NCBI GenBank assembly: GCA_963799845.1
Contig: CAWCYI010000004.1
Location: 1,344,001 to 1,408,000 of the forward strand
DNA length: 64,000 nt
DNA from: an uncultured Nitrososphaerota archaeon
Lineage (GTDB): Archaea; Thermoproteota; Nitrososphaeria; Nitrososphaerales; CADDZS01
Reading direction: 5' to 3'
The notes beneath the pieces are model-generated. The model had not been told where the DNA came from and did no database searches. It saw only the letters and a program-made list of their open reading frames with translations. Shown here in pieces: positions 4,051 through 44,617 of this stretch. Within the stretch, counting starts at the first letter, position 1. Each line of letters starts with the position of its first letter. The translations under genes and the position numbers were made by a program.

Positions 4051-4126
4051 CTAATTTGTAAATTTATGCGGATCCCACATCTCACACTCGGGATTTAATA
4101 GTAAATTAGAGATGTTGGGATTTACC
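4051..4126 (+). repeat. REP-like repeat family 1, degenerate copy with an extra inverted half
   Basis: ATCCCACATCTCACACTCGGGATTTAATAGTAAATT resembles 29326-29349; ATCCCACATCTC/GAGATGTTGGGAT hairpin. Confidence 0.65.
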
Positions 4127-6016: not shown

Positions 6017-6223
6017 GACTTGGAAGTAGCCACTCGGAAACAGAACGTATGAATATTTGAAAGATATCTGATAATATAGCGATAACCAGAGCAACTCAGG
6101 TGGAATTTTTCTCATTTTCTTCGTGCATTCTCTGGCCGCGCCCAGCAAAAGGACTCTAGGTCTGGGTGTTACTAGTGATTCCTATGACTATCCTTGAAAA
6201 GACAGAATGTAAAATCGAAGGAT

Positions 6224-7264
6224 ATGTATCAACAAAATGAGGTAATCTACATAGGAGCTGACGTTCACTAAAGAGAAACTCAGCTAGCAATCTTTGAACC
6301 AAGAGGCACTCTTCTGCAGGAGGAGAGAATTCTCACAAAGGATCTTCAAAGCTTCATTCAGTCTCTGCCGGCGAAGGAGAAACATCTAGCTCTAGAATCT
6401 GTTGGATTCATCTACCCGTTGTACGATAAGCTCAGACAGATTCCAAGGTGCGAGGTTGCAGTAGCAAATCCGAAGAGGCTGAGACGAGATTCCGGTTCGA
6501 AGCAAAAACATGACAGAATAGATGCAAAACTACTTGGGGATCAAATCAGGACCAACTACCTCAAGAGATCCTACATGCCTGAAGAAGAAACTAGGGAGAA
6601 GAGGTTTCTCATCAACGACAGGGTGAAGTACGGCCTCAGGAGGGCGGAGCTGAGAGGCTCGATACGATGGCTTCTGAAGAGGAGGGGAATCGTCGTTGAT
6701 AGTCCGTTTAGTGCAGAGGGAAGAAGGAAGCTCAAAGAAGAGATTTCCCTCCAGGAGATAGATATCAGATTGCAGGAACTCGAACTCGTGGAATCAATCA
6801 CTGAGAAGCTCGACCCGCAGATTTCTCTGATCGTCGCGCATGATGAAAAGGCAAAACTCATGGACACGTTGCCTGGCGTTGCACCCTACACGGCTCTTTT
6901 TCTTTCATCGGCTCTTGACAACATCGATAGATTCCCCGACTCGAAACATGCGTGCGCCTACTTGGGTCTCGTTCCTTCCCTGCACCAGTCAGGTGATGCA
7001 TCTTTCACAGGTCACATAACGAAGGATGGAAACAAGTTTCTCCGGAGGAATCTGATCGAGTGTGCGAGAGTAGCTGTCAGAAAGGATCCTCGCCTCAAAG
7101 AGTTCTATACCAAGTTAAGGCGTACGAGGGGTGAAAGGAAAGCTTTGATCGCTGTGGCAAGGAAGATGGTTTCGTACGCCTATTGGATGCTGAAGAGGAA
7201 TCGAACCTACGAAGAGCTGAGCTCCTTGGACGAATTTATGGAGACAACAATCATCTCCGTCTAG
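6224..7264 (+). pseudogene. IS110 transposase/recombinase with in-frame TAA at codon 16
   Basis: MYQQNEVIYIGADVH*RETQL in frame with ORF 6419-7264; KHDRIDA, AYLGLVPSLHQSG, GHITKDGN, IAVARK motifs. Confidence 0.85.
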
Positions 7265-7345
7265 TGAATAGGGAACGCGTTTCGTAGAGGCGAATTGTAA
7301 GGAAAATGGGGACCTCCCCGAATAGTTGAATGCCAGCCTCTCCAG
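7222..7345 (+). ncRNA. Putative bridge RNA/seekRNA of the IS110 element
   Basis: Two stem/internal-loop/hairpin modules; guides GAATTTA and CTAGT match the reconstructed target, ATAGTTGA matches the circle junction. Confidence 0.6.
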
Positions 7346-7434
7346 AAAAAACGCTCGTGCAATTCCCAGCTAAACTTAGATAGTCATAGTTAAATTCATG
7401 TCAGAGTCCGGTATTGTGTACAAATTTGCTCAGT

Positions 7435-8535
7435 TTAGATATAATTCAAATCATCAGTCATCATCAAGGGAATCCCTAGGTTATCTTCACTGGAACCAAA
7501 GAGCCAGCTGGACATGGCTTCGTAGCTCCCGATGACTTTCTTTCCAAAAGGTCCTTCAGCCAACCATGAGCCTTTCCAGCGAAAAATTCTGGCCTTGCCA
7601 CCAAGATTTTTTTCAAACCAGGAGTGGAGTTCGGAGAAAAGATATTCCACGTTCAGCGGCCGAATCGTTCCCTGCAGCGGCTCCTCTCGAAAGTTCATTT
7701 TAAGATCATCAACATACTTCATCATTTCAACATCGGATGGAAGGACATGCAATTCCACAAACTCTGCTACATAGTGCTCCGAAATTCTTGATAAACTGGA
7801 AACCACAGCTCTGCATGATCCTGCCCACTCGATTATTCTCACGAATCTCGGTTCTGCTATCAAACTATCAATGGATGCAACGACATACCCGACAGTTTTT
7901 CCTTGATGCTTTATTTCGAAAAGCTGGCGATCAGAATACCTGCGGAGATATCCGAGCGTGCGAAGGAAGACCGCCATTTGTGAAATATTTCTTGCGTATC
8001 TGATCGGTTCATTCTCGTGAATTTCTAAAAGCTCCGTCGCATGCGATTCTCTATCTTCTGGCTTTACAAGGATTGTTTGAAAACCGTCCGATGTGACATC
8101 TCCTCTAGTACCGCGTTCGAAAATTGCAACAATCATCCTTCCGACTGAGGAACACCCGATTCTTGTGTAGATGCTCTCGTCTCCAGAAACCAGCAGCAGT
8201 GAGACCGGTTCTTGTTCCAGATCCTTGACAATTTCTCCAATGATTCTCGAAGCTAGTTTTTCACCGCGATGCTCCGGCAGTGTCCAAACATTACCCAGGG
8301 ATGCCACGTGAATTTGCAGCCCATTCAACGAGCAAACGCTCTTGCATACACCAGCCGAGCTTATCGGATTTCCCTTTTCATCCTCGATATAGTAAAGATT
8401 CTTTGAATTATCCGCCGAGTAGAAAAGCGGAAAATCATCGAGCAGTCCCGGTTCATTGCAGGGCCTGAACACCGTGTCTCCGGTCTTTGCAAGGGTTTTC
8501 GAAAGTTCGGGAGTGGCGCGTTTTACTTCGTACAA
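7435..8535 (-). CDS. GNAT (Eis-like) acetyltransferase
   Basis: LGNVWTLPEHRGEKLAS acetyl-CoA motif, IYTRIG; directly downstream of GH116 paralogue 2. Confidence 0.75.
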   Translation of the reverse strand: MYEVKRATPELSKTLAKTGDTVFRPCNEPGLLDDFPLFYSADNSKNLYYIEDEKGNPISSAGVCKSVCSLNGLQIHVASLGNVWTLPEHRGEKLASRIIGEIVKDLEQEPVSLLLVSGDESIYTRIGCSSVGRMIVAIFERGTRGDVTSDGFQTILVKPEDRESHATELLEIHENEPIRYARNISQMAVFLRTLGYLRRYSDRQLFEIKHQGKTVGYVVASIDSLIAEPRFVRIIEWAGSCRAVVSSLSRISEHYVAEFVELHVLPSDVEMMKYVDDLKMNFREEPLQGTIRPLNVEYLFSELHSWFEKNLGGKARIFRWKGSWLAEGPFGKKVIGSYEAMSSWLFGSSEDNLGIPLMMTDDLNYI

Positions 8536-8567: not shown

Positions 8568-10616
8568 CTACATAGTAAAAGTCCACGGAGCTGCGCTGCC
8601 GATATAGTGGTCGAGGAAGTATACCTCAGGGTCGGGCCGTCCCGTTCTTCCGTCTATCCTTGACGGCTGGTTCCACACCAGTCCCTGCTCAACGATGTTG
8701 TCCCACTCTTTCTTTGCGACTTCGAGCCACTTCCTGTCTCCAATCCGGTACCTGTATCCTGCCAGCCCGAAGACAAGGCGGGGCCACGAAGAGTACGACT
8801 GAACGCTCAGCTCCCAGATCTTCCCGTTTTCGTTAACGAGGTTCGGAGTGGCGTACTTGGATGCCTGCGCGTTCACCTTGTACTGCCACTCAAAGGCGGA
8901 ATCAATCTTATCTTTGGGTGCAATTGATTCGAGCTCAAGCACGTGCATCCACCACTCGCCAGTGAGCTGAGCCATGAACACGTATCCCGTTGGATCCGGA
9001 TCACCCCGCCATGCTTCGAAGTACCTTCCGTTGTAGAGATCTAGAAATGAACTTCTAGCCTTGGTCAAGAGTGCATTGTACCACTCTTGGTCCTTCGGAT
9101 TGTTCAAGATCTTTGCCGTTTCTCTTAGGGCGGTCAGGCATGCTACGAAAACAGATCCACAATAGCTGTCCTTTCCCTTGATTGCAGTTGCATCAAACCC
9201 CGCATCCGCCTGCCCCTCCGCATCTGGAATCCCGTCACCATCCTTGTCCTGCTTCAGGTCCCACTGCAGAGTCTTCAACATCGCGGGATACATCTCTCGG
9301 AGGAACTGGACGTCCTTCGTAAACTTGTAGTACCGGAACACGAGTAAGATGAATGACGGGCCCAGGTCCTTCCATCCCGGAGGCGAGGTCGTTCCGTCGG
9401 TTGCATGATCAAACGAGTTCAGTCCCAGGTCATGGGGAATGTACCCGTCCGGTCTCGCAGCTTTTGCAAGCAACCCGAGGAAGGTTTTCTCGAGCTGGGG
9501 GAACATGATAAGATGGGGGAGGGATCCGCCCTCGTGGCAAAATCCGGCAATTGTTCCGAGCATCGGGTCATTTTTGGTGGCCTCAAAAATTGCAAACCTC
9601 CCCTTTTCATCGAGCCATGTCGCCGCGAATAGTGTGTATGTAGTGTTGATTATGGCATCCTTCAACCAGTCCGGCAGGTCATTTTTTATGAGAGTTTTGT
9701 GCCACGCGCGGGATTGATCTCTGAGCCGGTCGTAGTTGGAGAGAAAGTGGCGCGCGAACTGTTCAGATCCGGTAAACTTGTTGTGGTAGTAGTGCCCGTA
9801 GGGATACAGCACGCAGCGCCCAGTAAAGTACCATGAAAAGACGTACTTCACTTCTTGCTCCTCCCGGTCATACCTGCAGACGATCACACCGGCAGGATCG
9901 TCCCACTGCCCTAAGACTTCATGAGGATCGTCGGTGGGGAGCGTTCCTCCCTTTGCAATTGACAGCCAGGGTTCCTCATTTTCAAATATGTACTTCCACA
10001 CTCTCTGGGAGATCGCGACACCCGGCGGCACGTTGAGGTTGTACTGCACGATTTTCTGAGACGGATTCTCCGCGATGAGGCACAGGTCTCCTTTCGCGCC
10101 GTCGTAATCGTTACACTGCCGGTTTACAAACGCGATACCACCCTCGACTGATTCATTCACCCTTCCGATCAGGTTCGTCCCGGTAATGTTTGAGACCGAG
10201 ACTGCGATCCTGCCGCTCTTGCTTCCCTTGACCCGCACGGATATTCCGAGAGCCGGCATCGAAGACTCGTCCAGGTTCCCCGGAATGAGTGACGAGAAGA
10301 CCTCCATCGTCGCTTCGATAGTTCCCTTCTTGGCTTTTAGAGTCGCAAACGGAAATTCTCCCCTGTACGACAGTTCGTCCGGTTCGTAATCGGAGAAGTT
10401 TTTCATTGGAAGAAATTTTTCAATGAAGAATGGCGCTCCGTCATCCGGAACCACAAACACGTGAAAAGCACGCATCTTCGGAGTCGGGCTCCCCCAGTTG
10501 TGTAAAATCGTAAGATTGGACATCTTGCCTTCGTTATCGATCTCTACCTTACCGGTTCCGATTCCGCCAAAGGGAACGCCGCCCTCTAGATTTGCGTTGG
10601 GTCCATATTCTACCAT
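8568..10616 (-). CDS. GH116 beta-glycosidase, paralogue 2
   Basis: GVPFGGIGTG, PHDLG, WKDLGP, DKDGDGIPD..GQADAGFD; collinear with 508-2553. Confidence 0.88.
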   Translation of the reverse strand: MVEYGPNANLEGGVPFGGIGTGKVEIDNEGKMSNLTILHNWGSPTPKMRAFHVFVVPDDGAPFFIEKFLPMKNFSDYEPDELSYRGEFPFATLKAKKGTIEATMEVFSSLIPGNLDESSMPALGISVRVKGSKSGRIAVSVSNITGTNLIGRVNESVEGGIAFVNRQCNDYDGAKGDLCLIAENPSQKIVQYNLNVPPGVAISQRVWKYIFENEEPWLSIAKGGTLPTDDPHEVLGQWDDPAGVIVCRYDREEQEVKYVFSWYFTGRCVLYPYGHYYHNKFTGSEQFARHFLSNYDRLRDQSRAWHKTLIKNDLPDWLKDAIINTTYTLFAATWLDEKGRFAIFEATKNDPMLGTIAGFCHEGGSLPHLIMFPQLEKTFLGLLAKAARPDGYIPHDLGLNSFDHATDGTTSPPGWKDLGPSFILLVFRYYKFTKDVQFLREMYPAMLKTLQWDLKQDKDGDGIPDAEGQADAGFDATAIKGKDSYCGSVFVACLTALRETAKILNNPKDQEWYNALLTKARSSFLDLYNGRYFEAWRGDPDPTGYVFMAQLTGEWWMHVLELESIAPKDKIDSAFEWQYKVNAQASKYATPNLVNENGKIWELSVQSYSSWPRLVFGLAGYRYRIGDRKWLEVAKKEWDNIVEQGLVWNQPSRIDGRTGRPDPEVYFLDHYIGSAAPWTFTM

Positions 10617-11870: not shown

Positions 11871-11935
11871 ACTTTGGAAAATTAGGGCATTCCGGGCGTC
11901 GTTCCGCTTCTATATTCTTTTGGAGTCTTTAATTA

Positions 11936-12159
11936 CAAGTTCTCATTGATTCATTAAGAAAAAAATTTTTCTGCGTTTCACACACGCGAGCACTTTTTGG
12001 CCGAAGAGATACGTTCGAGCTCTGTTCAATGCGTTCAGCTCGTTTCAAGATCTGTAAGCTCAGAAGAGCTCGTTTCAAGCTATTACACAGAGAGGGCCCC
12101 CTAGGGAAGCTCCGCATCCGCGCGTTTAGAGCTGGACGGAGCTTAGAAAGCTCGAAACG
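11936..12159 (+). repeat. Dispersed repeat family 2, copy 1 (phased AGCT array with long inverted repeat)
   Basis: 11936-12079 aligns with the reverse complement of 44255-44397; 12041-12071 pairs imperfectly with 12129-12159. Confidence 0.8.
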
Positions 12160-27560: not shown

Positions 27561-27953
27561 TTGCAAAAATGGAAAAGCTCTATTACCGCGGAGGACGGAG
27601 TCGCTTTTGTGACCGCAACGATTTGCTACTTTGACTCCCCTCCAAAAAACGAATTCTTTGTATTCTTCAAAGGGACATTGCTACCAATACTAGTGCGATA
27701 TGGTGCTCCATGTCTTGCTACTTTTGTCACCGAATCCAGCCCCAATAACTATCCAAGACTAGCAGTGAGAGAAGGAGAATACGTGTTTGTCTGGTTCAGC
27801 TTATTTACAAACGGAACATCTTACGAGAATCACATTCGAGCTTTGGAAGAAAGTTCTGACTGGTTAAAGATCCAGGTTCAACTTAAGGAATTCTTGATCA
27901 AGCCGGTAGAGATCTTGAAGCTTTCACCGACTCCGCGTTCAAAGCTAATCTAA
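27561..27953 (+). pseudogene. NIPSNAP-like protein, C-terminal half only
   Basis: FVTESSPNNYPRLAVREGEYVFVWF, LSPTPRS; N-terminal half appears to be missing. Confidence 0.55.
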
Positions 27954-27962
27954 CTCTAATGC

Positions 27963-27997
27963 TATTAGTAAATACGTGCGCGAATCCCGTACCTCGC
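27963..27997 (+). repeat. REP-like repeat family 1, degenerate copy
   Basis: TATTAGTAAATACGTGCGCGAATCCCGTACCTCGC. Confidence 0.5.
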
Positions 27998-28004
27998 ATG
28001 ATCT

Positions 28005-28283
28005 TTACGTTTCATCTTTCAAAAATTCTATGAATTGACGTGTATTTTTACTAGTTAATTGGTGCGGAAGTCCCACATTCCGCGTACGAGATTTACTAGT
28101 AAGACCAAATCTTTGCGTCAGTATTTTGTGATTTCCGCGATTAACCAATCTTGTTCTTCGTGAGACAGTTATTGTTACTGTTTCGCCAATATTTACCAAT
28201 TGACGTGAAAAGTGTTGTAGTGCTCGTCTCACTTCACTCGAGGAGAGATTAGTTCTTTCTTCATACCAGTATCCGAATCCCAT
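28005..28283 (-). CDS. Small AT-rich hypothetical ORF reading through a repeat copy
   Basis: ATG ORF; 3' part overlaps the repeat. Confidence 0.3.
   Translation of the reverse strand: MGFGYWYEERTNLSSSEVRRALQHFSRQLVNIGETVTITVSRRTRLVNRGNHKILTQRFGLTSKSRTRNVGLPHQLTSKNTRQFIEFLKDET
28045..28102 (+). repeat. REP-like repeat family 1, full-length copy
   Basis: TTTTTACTAGTTAATTGG...TCCCACATTCCGC...GATTTACTAGTAA. Confidence 0.8.
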
Positions 28284-29113: not shown

Positions 29114-29300
29114 GATGTCTGTGCATTACGCGGCTCTTTAAAAAATAAATCCCGTGTAAAGCCCGATTCCGTGAAGAGTCTTCGTTCCGACCCAAGATTC
29201 ACTGCTTTCTTGAAAAGACTGGACTCGAAGCTTAGTAAAGGGGTATCAAAACGCTCGATTGCTCCAAAATGCGAACCTTTGCTCTTTGCCTATTTGCACA

Positions 29301-29350
29301 TTTTTACTAGTAAATTGGGGTTCAAATCCCACATCTCGTACTCGGGATTA
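29301..29350 (+). repeat. REP-like repeat family 1 copy
   Basis: 34 bp identical to 30962-30995. Confidence 0.9.
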
Positions 29351-30798: not shown

Positions 30799-30961
30799 TT
30801 ACCTTGTTGCAGTGTTCGCAACCGCAACCAATCCACTTCGGCATCATGTTCAACAGAGCGGAGGCATCTCCCATGAAGACCTGTCCGATAAAGATCGGTA
30901 GTGGCGTGTATCGATAGTCCGCTATTGAGCACATCTCTTGAAGATTTACAATCGGGTTGTA

Positions 30962-31020
30962 TTTTTACTAGTAAATTGGGGTTCAAATCCCACATTCCGC
31001 CTATGGGATTTACTAGTAAA
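30962..31020 (+). repeat. REP-like repeat family 1, best copy
   Basis: Two perfect TTTACTAGTAAA palindromes (30964-30975, 31009-31020) around an AAATCCCA/TGGGATTT hairpin. Confidence 0.92.
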
Positions 31021-31152
31021 ACCAAAGGTGTAGCTGAAGTTGTTCACACTGTCAGTAAACCAGGCGCAGACATCGCTTTAGGTTCTCTGCAGATACTAAC
31101 TTCTCTCCCTGTCTCAGTGTGCGGTCTGCGGAACATGATGGTCAGATAAAGC

Positions 31153-33204: not shown

Positions 33205-33254
33205 TTTTTTACTAGTAAATCGGGGTTCAAATCCCACATTCCGCGCATGGAATC
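33205..33254 (+). repeat. REP-like repeat family 1 copy
   Basis: TTTTTTACTAGTAAATCGGGGTTCAAATCCCACATTCCGC. Confidence 0.9.
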
Positions 33255-44254: not shown

Positions 44255-44397
44255 TGAAACAAGTCTGTCCTGAGCTTAGAGAGCTTGAAACGAGCTGTCC
44301 GAATTGAACAGAGCTTGAACGTAGCTCTTCACTCAGAAAACACCTCCCCGTGTGCGAACGCAGAAATTTTTTTTCTTAATGAATCAATGGGAACTCG
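44255..44397 (-). repeat. Dispersed repeat family 2, copy 2
   Basis: Reverse complement aligns with 11936-12079 (shared CATTGATTCATTAAGAAAAAAA, GCTCTGTTCAAT, CAGCTCGTTTCAAG). Confidence 0.8.
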
Positions 44398-44617
44398 TTT
44401 ATGAACGAAAAAGAAGTCCTCCAGCAAATTCTGGATAGTTTATACAGGAGATATCAATCATTTGTCGTCTTGTTTCTTGGAAGGTGTCATCCGATGCAAG
44501 ATGTTGAAATCGAATTCCGATAGAACACTTCTTTTTCTCAACTACATCAATCAACATCCAACATCGGACGGCCTCGGAAAACCTCCGACGATGAGGCAGA
44601 ACCAATAATTACATAAC

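Follow-up and report, generated by a model that had tools for sequence, protein, structure and literature searches.

An archaeal IS1111-type insertion sequence probably directed by its own RNA to the palindrome of a host intergenic repeat

RNA-guided (bridge or seek RNA) recombinases are under development as genome-writing tools, and to our knowledge those characterised so far come from bacteria. The element reported here was found in a 64,000-nucleotide stretch of archaeal DNA (the window, meaning the whole stretch that was analysed), and its closest described counterparts are bacterial members of the IS110 family that target REP sequences, namely IS621 of E. coli, ISPpu9 and ISPpu10 of Pseudomonas putida and ISPa11 of P. 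aeruginosa. According to the available parts of PMC11208160, PMC11187229, PMC12288879 and PMC1525189, these elements have a DEDD transposase with a Transposase_20 domain, insert into multi-copy palindromic repeats between genes, always at one position and in one orientation, possess a short common core without target duplication, and read the target with two short RNA segments in an internal loop. The window element shares these features, with the RNA segments being predicted here; it differs in its archaeal host, in a target loop that overlaps the end of the transposase reading frame, and in its core, T(G/A) instead of the CT of IS621, and it is known from sequence alone. The IS1111 group with seekRNAs (ISEc11, ISKpn4, ISPst6 and ISPa11; Siddiquee et al. 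2024) is similar in further respects: in the portion of PMC11187229 consulted, its members are described with sub-terminal inverted repeats of 11-13 bp, a non-coding region 3' of the transposase gene, and seekRNAs in which the top-strand complement lies 5' of the bottom-strand complement, the two overlapping at the cut, all as in the window element; the terminal extensions given there are 7 (or 6) bp on the left and 3 bp on the right, against about 4-6 and 1-3 bp here. In the IS1111-attC group (ISPa21, ISKpn4, ISPst6), as here, a structured repeat that separates single genes in arrays is parasitised; unlike the attC sites of integron cassettes that this group targets, the repeat described below failed the attC and integron tests. 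Our literature search found no paper on an archaeal IS110/IS1111 element targeting a host repeat; further cases may be present in PMC11208160 and in bioRxiv supplements. A catalogue of archaeal IS110 proteins is given in 10.1101/2024.06.21.599552, and supplementary file 2 of PMC11208160 has, among the proteins listed, at least one archaeal IS110 protein labelled Thaumarchaeota.

With a probability of roughly 0.85, we read the locus as an IS1111-type insertion sequence of the IS110 family, now decayed, which, judging from complementarities in the DNA, was guided by a non-coding RNA of its own when it integrated into one palindrome of a host repeat. The genome comprises 4.6 Mb in 9 contigs, and all features given below are on the plus strand unless stated otherwise. 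The element spans about 6176-7390 (1215 bp counting one core copy). Its body was assigned to 6178..7390 from the ends common to relatives and from blastn against the genome, in which the matching copy or fragment starts at 6176; a metagenome contig of 1216 nt covers positions 6180-7396. The left sub-terminal inverted repeat CTATGACTATC (6182..6192) is the reverse complement of the right one, GATAGTCATAG (7379..7389), at 11/11 positions, and both sit a few bases inside the element ends. Beyond them, the terminal extensions measure 4-6 bp (left) and 1-3 bp (right), varying with the core assignment, as the ends were not fixed by an empty site. The transposase pseudogene (6224..7264; ATG at 6224, stop codon at 7262-7264) leaves about 126 nt of non-coding sequence 3' of the stop, compared with about 46 nt 5' of the ATG. 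It matched Pfam PF02371 (Transposase_20) with 80.8 bits (cut-off 21.3) and PF01548 (DEDD_Tnp_IS110) with 28.2 bits, slightly below the cut-off of 29 because the query begins past an internal stop. This stop is an in-frame TAA at 6269-6271, transposase codon 16, where GAA is found in the relative L002 and in a fragment on contig C6. The nonsense codon indicates that the window copy is dead, and family membership is unaffected by it. The lineage is represented in this genome by the window copy and one left-end fragment of 295 nt (C6:1741266-1741560, blastn, 81% identical). The nearest public records belong to a Nitrososphaerales archaeon and a Bathyarchaeia archaeon, and the protein has little identity to bacterial members (28% to a Francisella locus). 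The features typical of the IS1111 group, that is, the domains, inverted repeats and 3' non-coding region described in the parts of PMC11187229 and PMC11208160 seen, are all present in the window element, which structurally is a member of the IS110 family, IS1111 group; the domains and nearest records bear out the classification as an archaeal IS110 element given in a preliminary description of this DNA. Note that the IS region is bracketed by a pair of paralogous minus-strand genes (508-2553 and 8568-10616), each encoding about 680 aa, at a spacing of 8057-8060 nt (repeat families D2, D4 and D9), and that inverted repeat pairs (75 nt at 83% and 35 nt at 91%) connect 11935-12081 with 44265-44398, 32 kb apart.

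The repeat unit, about 60 nt long, begins and ends with TTTACTAGTAAA, a perfect 12-nt palindrome, and has TCCCAC...GGGATTT as its conserved interior; it is often preceded by a variant half-unit, about 45 nt away on the upstream side. With a profile made from the genome copies, 63 loci were detected in the genome at E < 0.001, none of which (0/63) lies inside an ORF of 150 aa or more. Forty-four of the 63 are grouped, at spacings of 0.7-5 kb, into 11 arrays, 9 of which are co-oriented. Copies in the window include an unoccupied one 2 kb upstream of the IS (4058..4106, nhmmer E = 1.2e-6), a composite (27959..28106) of a variant half-unit (27959-27998) followed by a full unit (28042-28106), a full copy with both palindromes (30957..31023, E = 2.4e-19), and the copies at 29300..29349 (E = 1.6e-13) and 33207..33253 (E = 2.1e-12). 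RNAalifold with 33 near-full-length rows of 59 aligned copies gave no consensus structure. The sub-type with GGGGTTCAAATCCC (29300-29349 and 30957-31023) has a 14-nt T-arm motif identical to that of the genome's tRNA-Arg and tRNA-Ala, and the likeness stops before the acceptor stem; the reading of the repeats as tRNA-derived att remnants was dropped after ARAGORN found no tRNA in the window, in a run that yielded only 9 tRNAs genome-wide.

The boxes R'' and R' of integron attC sites have the form RYYYAAC ... GTTRRRY. The unit ends TTTACTAGTAAA are unlike either box, the four weak PF00589 hits in the genome are all far from the arrays, and the ORFs between repeat units have no orientation bias relative to the repeat (11 same, 15 opposite), so that the readings as attC site, integron and integron cassette were rejected. 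Mobilisation of the RAYT/REP kind was likewise rejected, as neither of the two Y1_Tnp genes of the genome (C4:750843 and C6:729242) adjoins a repeat, the nearest one being about 15 kb away. Since neither an integrase nor a Y1 transposase occurs near the arrays, the repeat is considered neither an attC site nor a RAYT-linked REP. The term "REP-like" in the preliminary description therefore fits loosely: REP are short, imperfect intergenic palindromes in high copy number, and the present repeat is a 60-nt composite with two perfect 12-nt palindromes, forms co-oriented arrays and has no RAYT link. Its 63 loci are fewer than the more than 100 copies typical of REP according to PMC2817692. As regards the surroundings, the repeat arrays are IS-rich islands, and an element of 1.13 kb (G000:C6:966841-967972) has at least 18 near-identical copies on contigs C1, C4 and C6.

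In the arrays, units are separated by one or two accessory genes, and the arrays might be the recombination sites of an as yet unrecognised archaeal gene-shuffling platform, or of repeat-to-repeat shuffling by a bridge-type recombinase. The duplicated units that end at repeats favour this: a gene-sized unit at 27607-27962 of the window matches G000:C7:21832-22187 with 99.4% identity over 356 nt, the identity ending exactly at the repeat unit, and other matches between arrays (C4:1957881 with C6:1747469; C6:900539 with C4:1971720) also begin at repeats. It is favoured, too, by the arrays being hot spots for two IS110 lineages (see below). However, it is weakened by the lack of a nearby integrase and of any orientation bias among the ORFs, and we consider gene shuffling doubtful, with a small probability. 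That the IS drives rearrangement between repeat copies, as the preliminary description proposed, is a conjecture: the units shared between arrays show no link to the recombinase.

The target of the window element was reconstructed from its two junctions. The left half of the target, the palindrome remnant TGTTACTAG (6167..6175), is followed by a core copy TG (6176..6177); the right-junction core copy is TA (7391..7392; TG in relatives), and the right portion of a diverged repeat copy (AATTCATGTCAGAGTCCGGTAT...) occupies 7393..7426. The order in relatives is left flank, TG, left end on one side (in 8 relatives whose left junction could be read, TG precedes the left end), and right end, T-TG, right flank on the other. 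Because TG stands on both sides, it was taken as the common core, as CT is in IS621. The junctions of the window element and of L001/L002, a copy in a sister genome, read CTAG-TG-ATTCC on the left and CATAGT-TA-AATTC on the right. This gives CTAG-TA-AATTC as the target, a sequence identical to the repeat consensus. An insertion at CTAG|TAAATT had been proposed earlier; the motif is the same, and the cut is moved 1-2 nt further right by the TG core of the relatives. An empty orthologous site was found neither in the genus nor, as a contig joining across the IS, in 4 metagenome runs, and the exact cut was thus inferred. Two contig ends of genome G063 were considered as the orthologous site and rejected: their flanks match an unoccupied unit of the present genome (G000) over only 53 nt, so that the loci are not orthologous.

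The rebuilt empty-site 34-mer (6167-6176 joined to 7392-7415) aligns without gaps to repeat copies, as the preliminary description had stated, with 23/34 matches to the copy at 28046-28079 and 22, 23 and 22 of 34 to those at 29302, 30963 and 33207. The predicted target of 11 nt, CTAGTAAATTC, does match three repeat copies of the window at 10/11: allowing at most one mismatch, it occurs at 29307, 29887, 30968 and, on the minus strand, 31006. The window has these 4 occurrences where 1.06 are expected, and a count of 4 is attained in 5 of 100 shuffles; the enrichment within the window alone is marginal. Joined with one T, the rebuilt site scored 15.1 bits against the repeat profile (E = 0.037, calculated for a whole-genome search, where a single pre-specified site was actually tested) and ranks 75 among the 193 genome hits of the profile; joined with two T's, it scored 7.5 bits (E = 8.7). 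The best fit is to the repeat sub-type that runs on into GTGTCCGAATCCCGTA (32/44 positions). The position of the IS in a multi-copy intergenic repeat, also put forward previously, is borne out, the window site taken alone being a marginal repeat hit, and the window copy is regarded as an old insertion into an already diverged repeat unit.

Inspection of the flanks of related copies had been proposed as a check, and the one other copy seen with the same guides, as well as a near-identical metagenome copy, do adjoin repeats. L001/L002 share both guide segments of the window element (see below); their junctions are TTTATACTAG-TG... on the left and ...TA-AATTCGTGCG on the right, the right flank running TAAATTCGTGCG..., and further repeat units lie 1.7 and 2.7 kb off on the same contigs. 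A soil-metagenome contig (99 nt, one run) has a right end almost identical to that of the window element (over 98 nt, 3 letters differ and 1 gap occurs), which continues into GTGCGGGGGTCCCACATTCCGCG, a canonical repeat unit unlike both other flanks. The right junctions of the sister-genome and metagenome copies enter their repeat copies at the same position as that of the window element. Exact right-end scans turned up 13 metagenome and 5 genome stretches, of which 17 are chance matches and one is the known L001 copy.

A guide RNA with two internal loops was predicted at the 3' end of the element. The predicted target-binding loop (7223..7274) has a basal stem (7223-7228 / 7269-7274) and an apical hairpin (7240-7258). 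Its 5' guide segment ACGAAUUUA (7230-7238) would pair with the top strand right of the cut; it is complementary at 9/9 positions to the repeat consensus TAAATTCGT and at 8/9 to the mutated flank of the window element itself. Its 3' guide segment CUAGUG (7261-7266), which overlaps the stop codon at 7262-7264, supplies CTAG and the core. The two segments overlap at the core, one being complementary to each target strand, and together they read CTAG-T(G/A)-AATTCGT. The corresponding 13-mer CTAGTRAATTCGT has 13 sites in the genome against a naive expectation of 0.27, and 12 of them lie within repeat hits. All 12 are unoccupied. The earlier suggestion of a multi-copy safe harbour is plausible only: 63/63 repeat loci are outside long ORFs, yet the genome holds one dead copy and a fragment, with the 12 sites empty. 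The predicted donor-binding loop (7286..7341) has a stem (7286-7291 / 7336-7341) and a hairpin (7308-7319); AUAGUUG on its 3' side (7322-7328) equals the right end plus the core, and the 3 nt that follow (AAU) match the right flank. No convincing candidate was found for a donor guide to the left end. Rfam gave no match in the whole window at gathering cut-offs and none for 6100-7500 at E up to 1, and the fold predicted for 7215-7392 as a single sequence did not surpass those of shuffled sequences (z = -0.54). The 5' side of the second loop and the variable stretch 7342-7378, which contains AATTCCCA, were also considered for the target guides and dropped because they do not covary with flanks.

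Covariation between guides and flanks was examined in relatives. A DNA search gave matches in 18 of the 401 genomes of the order, this genome counted, and together with public records about 18 elements with readable ends were obtained. Their two variable segments directly flank the small stop-codon hairpin. With the register fixed, 13 of 17 elements have a 5' segment whose 7 non-core bases complement their own right flank at 6/7 positions or more, compared with a mean of 2.5 of 7 for non-cognate pairs. When each of the 9 guide classes was represented by a single element, the sum over cognate pairs was 38, a value reached by only 11 of 100000 permutations. Right flanks matched by their own 5' segments include TGAACCGTC, TGGGTTCGA, TGCATAGA, TGCACTTT and the TG(G/T)NAACTT group. 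Among the low scorers, G365, G263 and G269 match after a 1-nt register shift and G323 has no match; G006, which the anchor search missed and which is outside the 17-element count, has a right flank unlike its 5' segment. Of 10 elements whose left junction could be read, 8 have a 3' segment equal to the left flank adjoining the core, the exceptions being G131 and G323. The second-loop segment varies in step with the right end (ATAGTTG, ATGGTTG, ATAGATG, AAAGTTG), and the basal stem of the first loop has one covarying pair (UG in 5, CG in 5 and UA in 5). The claim that the element is programmed for the repeat is supported by these data, in which the predicted guides spell the repeat consensus and guide and flank covary. 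Relatives in another genus apparently aim at another multi-copy motif, GGTTCTGKNAASTTG, of which two genomes have 17 and 16 copies; its reversed control has 1 and 5 copies in the same genomes. Two relics whose guides are lost lie at other sequences: a 26-nt left-end relic in G108 beside ...ATAATAC, and the 81%-identical C6 fragment mentioned above, which adjoins ...GAATCTC. As separate observations, loci L044-L053 (G131, G191, G233 and G278) show a clustered repeat belonging to another genus of the order and targeted by the IS relatives, in which a CTGTTAAG..CGGTTG-like motif occurs twice at an interval of about 40 nt, and L029 1375-1610 (G233:C5) and L080 (G063:C123) are miniature derivatives of the two IS lineages, reduced to the ends and a portion of the guide-RNA region.

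The genome has 11 Transposase_20 matches. Among them, a second lineage (group B1, B2, F), whose protein is 26% (N-terminal part) and 38% (C-terminal part) identical to that of the window element, uses the same palindrome. Its guides AAUUUACU and UUUACUAGG lie around a hairpin in the layout of the window element. With the copies in two sister genomes included, 7/7 left junctions end in TTACTAG and 5/5 right junctions begin with TAAA. The insertions are in either palindrome and in either orientation, and the insertion point is 2 nt left of the core of the window element. A 67%-identical relative of this lineage has other guides, which match its own flanks. Two further IS110 lineages in the genome (2 and 4 copies) are not in repeats. 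It thus appears from the junctions and guides that two distant IS110 lineages converge on one palindrome. The second-lineage copies in this genome are all broken, by frameshifts or by a group II intron; the copy at G000:C4:1954607-1957756 (L038 4100-7260) is split by an intron RT/maturase gene (RVT_1 132 bits, GIIM 52.5 bits).

That the transposase protein itself reads the palindrome TTTACTAGTAAA or its hairpin, the RNA complementarity being incidental, is improbable in our judgement. Such a perfect 12-nt palindrome is a type of site that proteins often read, two unrelated IS lineages match it, and the guide RNA is known here as a prediction whose single-sequence fold is not significant. However, very similar proteins are found at different sites (TGAACCGTC, TGGGTTCGA, TGCATAGA and TG(G/T)NAACTT) with the RNA segment altered to match, the second lineage behaves alike in its 67%-identical relative with other guides, and RNA guidance has been shown experimentally for the family, as reported in the sections of PMC11187229 and PMC11208160 seen.

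Under the preferred reading, guidance by the element's own RNA, the steps of integration can be proposed from the published mechanism of the family, with the complementarities being those present in the DNA. The IS would excise as a circle joining ...CATAGT-TG-ATTCC..., and an RNA from its 3' end would fold with two internal loops. The 5' segment ACGAAUUUA of the first loop would then pair with the top strand TAAATTCGT right of the cut, and AUAGUUG of the second loop with the element's own right end and core. Exchange at the 2-nt core would place the element within TTTACTAG-TA-AATTC, where a wobble or mismatch step is assumed for the right-junction TA, as the donor loop specifies TG. The observed junctions (CTAG-TG-ATTCC and CATAGT-TA-AATTC) agree with this proposal. 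Against the preferred reading stand the single full copy of the lineage, a pseudogene, beside 12 empty matching sites, the relatives whose flanks depart from their guides, and the two relics at other sequences.

A common origin in place of targeting, in which the repeat-like flanks are part of the mobile element or the repeats are miniatures or footprints of the IS, is very improbable. IS-derived pieces are indeed known, namely the mini-element of about 220 nt in G233 (L029), end relics of 26 to 120 nt and the truncated derivative on G063 C123, and the repeats do cluster in IS-rich islands; but neither lineage has ends or sub-terminal repeats that share sequence with the repeat units, the three junction sets have flanks that are unlike each other beyond the repeat motif, and unoccupied units run uninterrupted across the insertion point. 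It is hardly credible that the flanks resemble the repeat by chance after landing in an AT-rich intergenic spot, since the marginal 11-mer test in the window and the mere 15.1 bits of the rebuilt site are outweighed by an E value that covers a whole-genome search for one pre-specified site, by the 32/44 match to one sub-type, by two more right junctions of this IS type that run into repeat units, and by the near limitation of the guide 13-mer to repeats (12/13 sites).

The element thus seems to work like the bacterial REP- and attC-targeting IS110/IS1111 elements; what is new is that the host is an archaeon, that the repeat family had not been described and that two lineages converge on one palindrome. 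The locus and its relatives provide about 18 natural guide-target pairs, as predicted here, from archaea of the order Nitrososphaerales, in which a target loop straddling the stop codon, handshake-like bases and a TG core make up a readable layout. A new archaeal repeat family is defined as well, and the bacterial habit of aiming at host repeats would recur in archaea.
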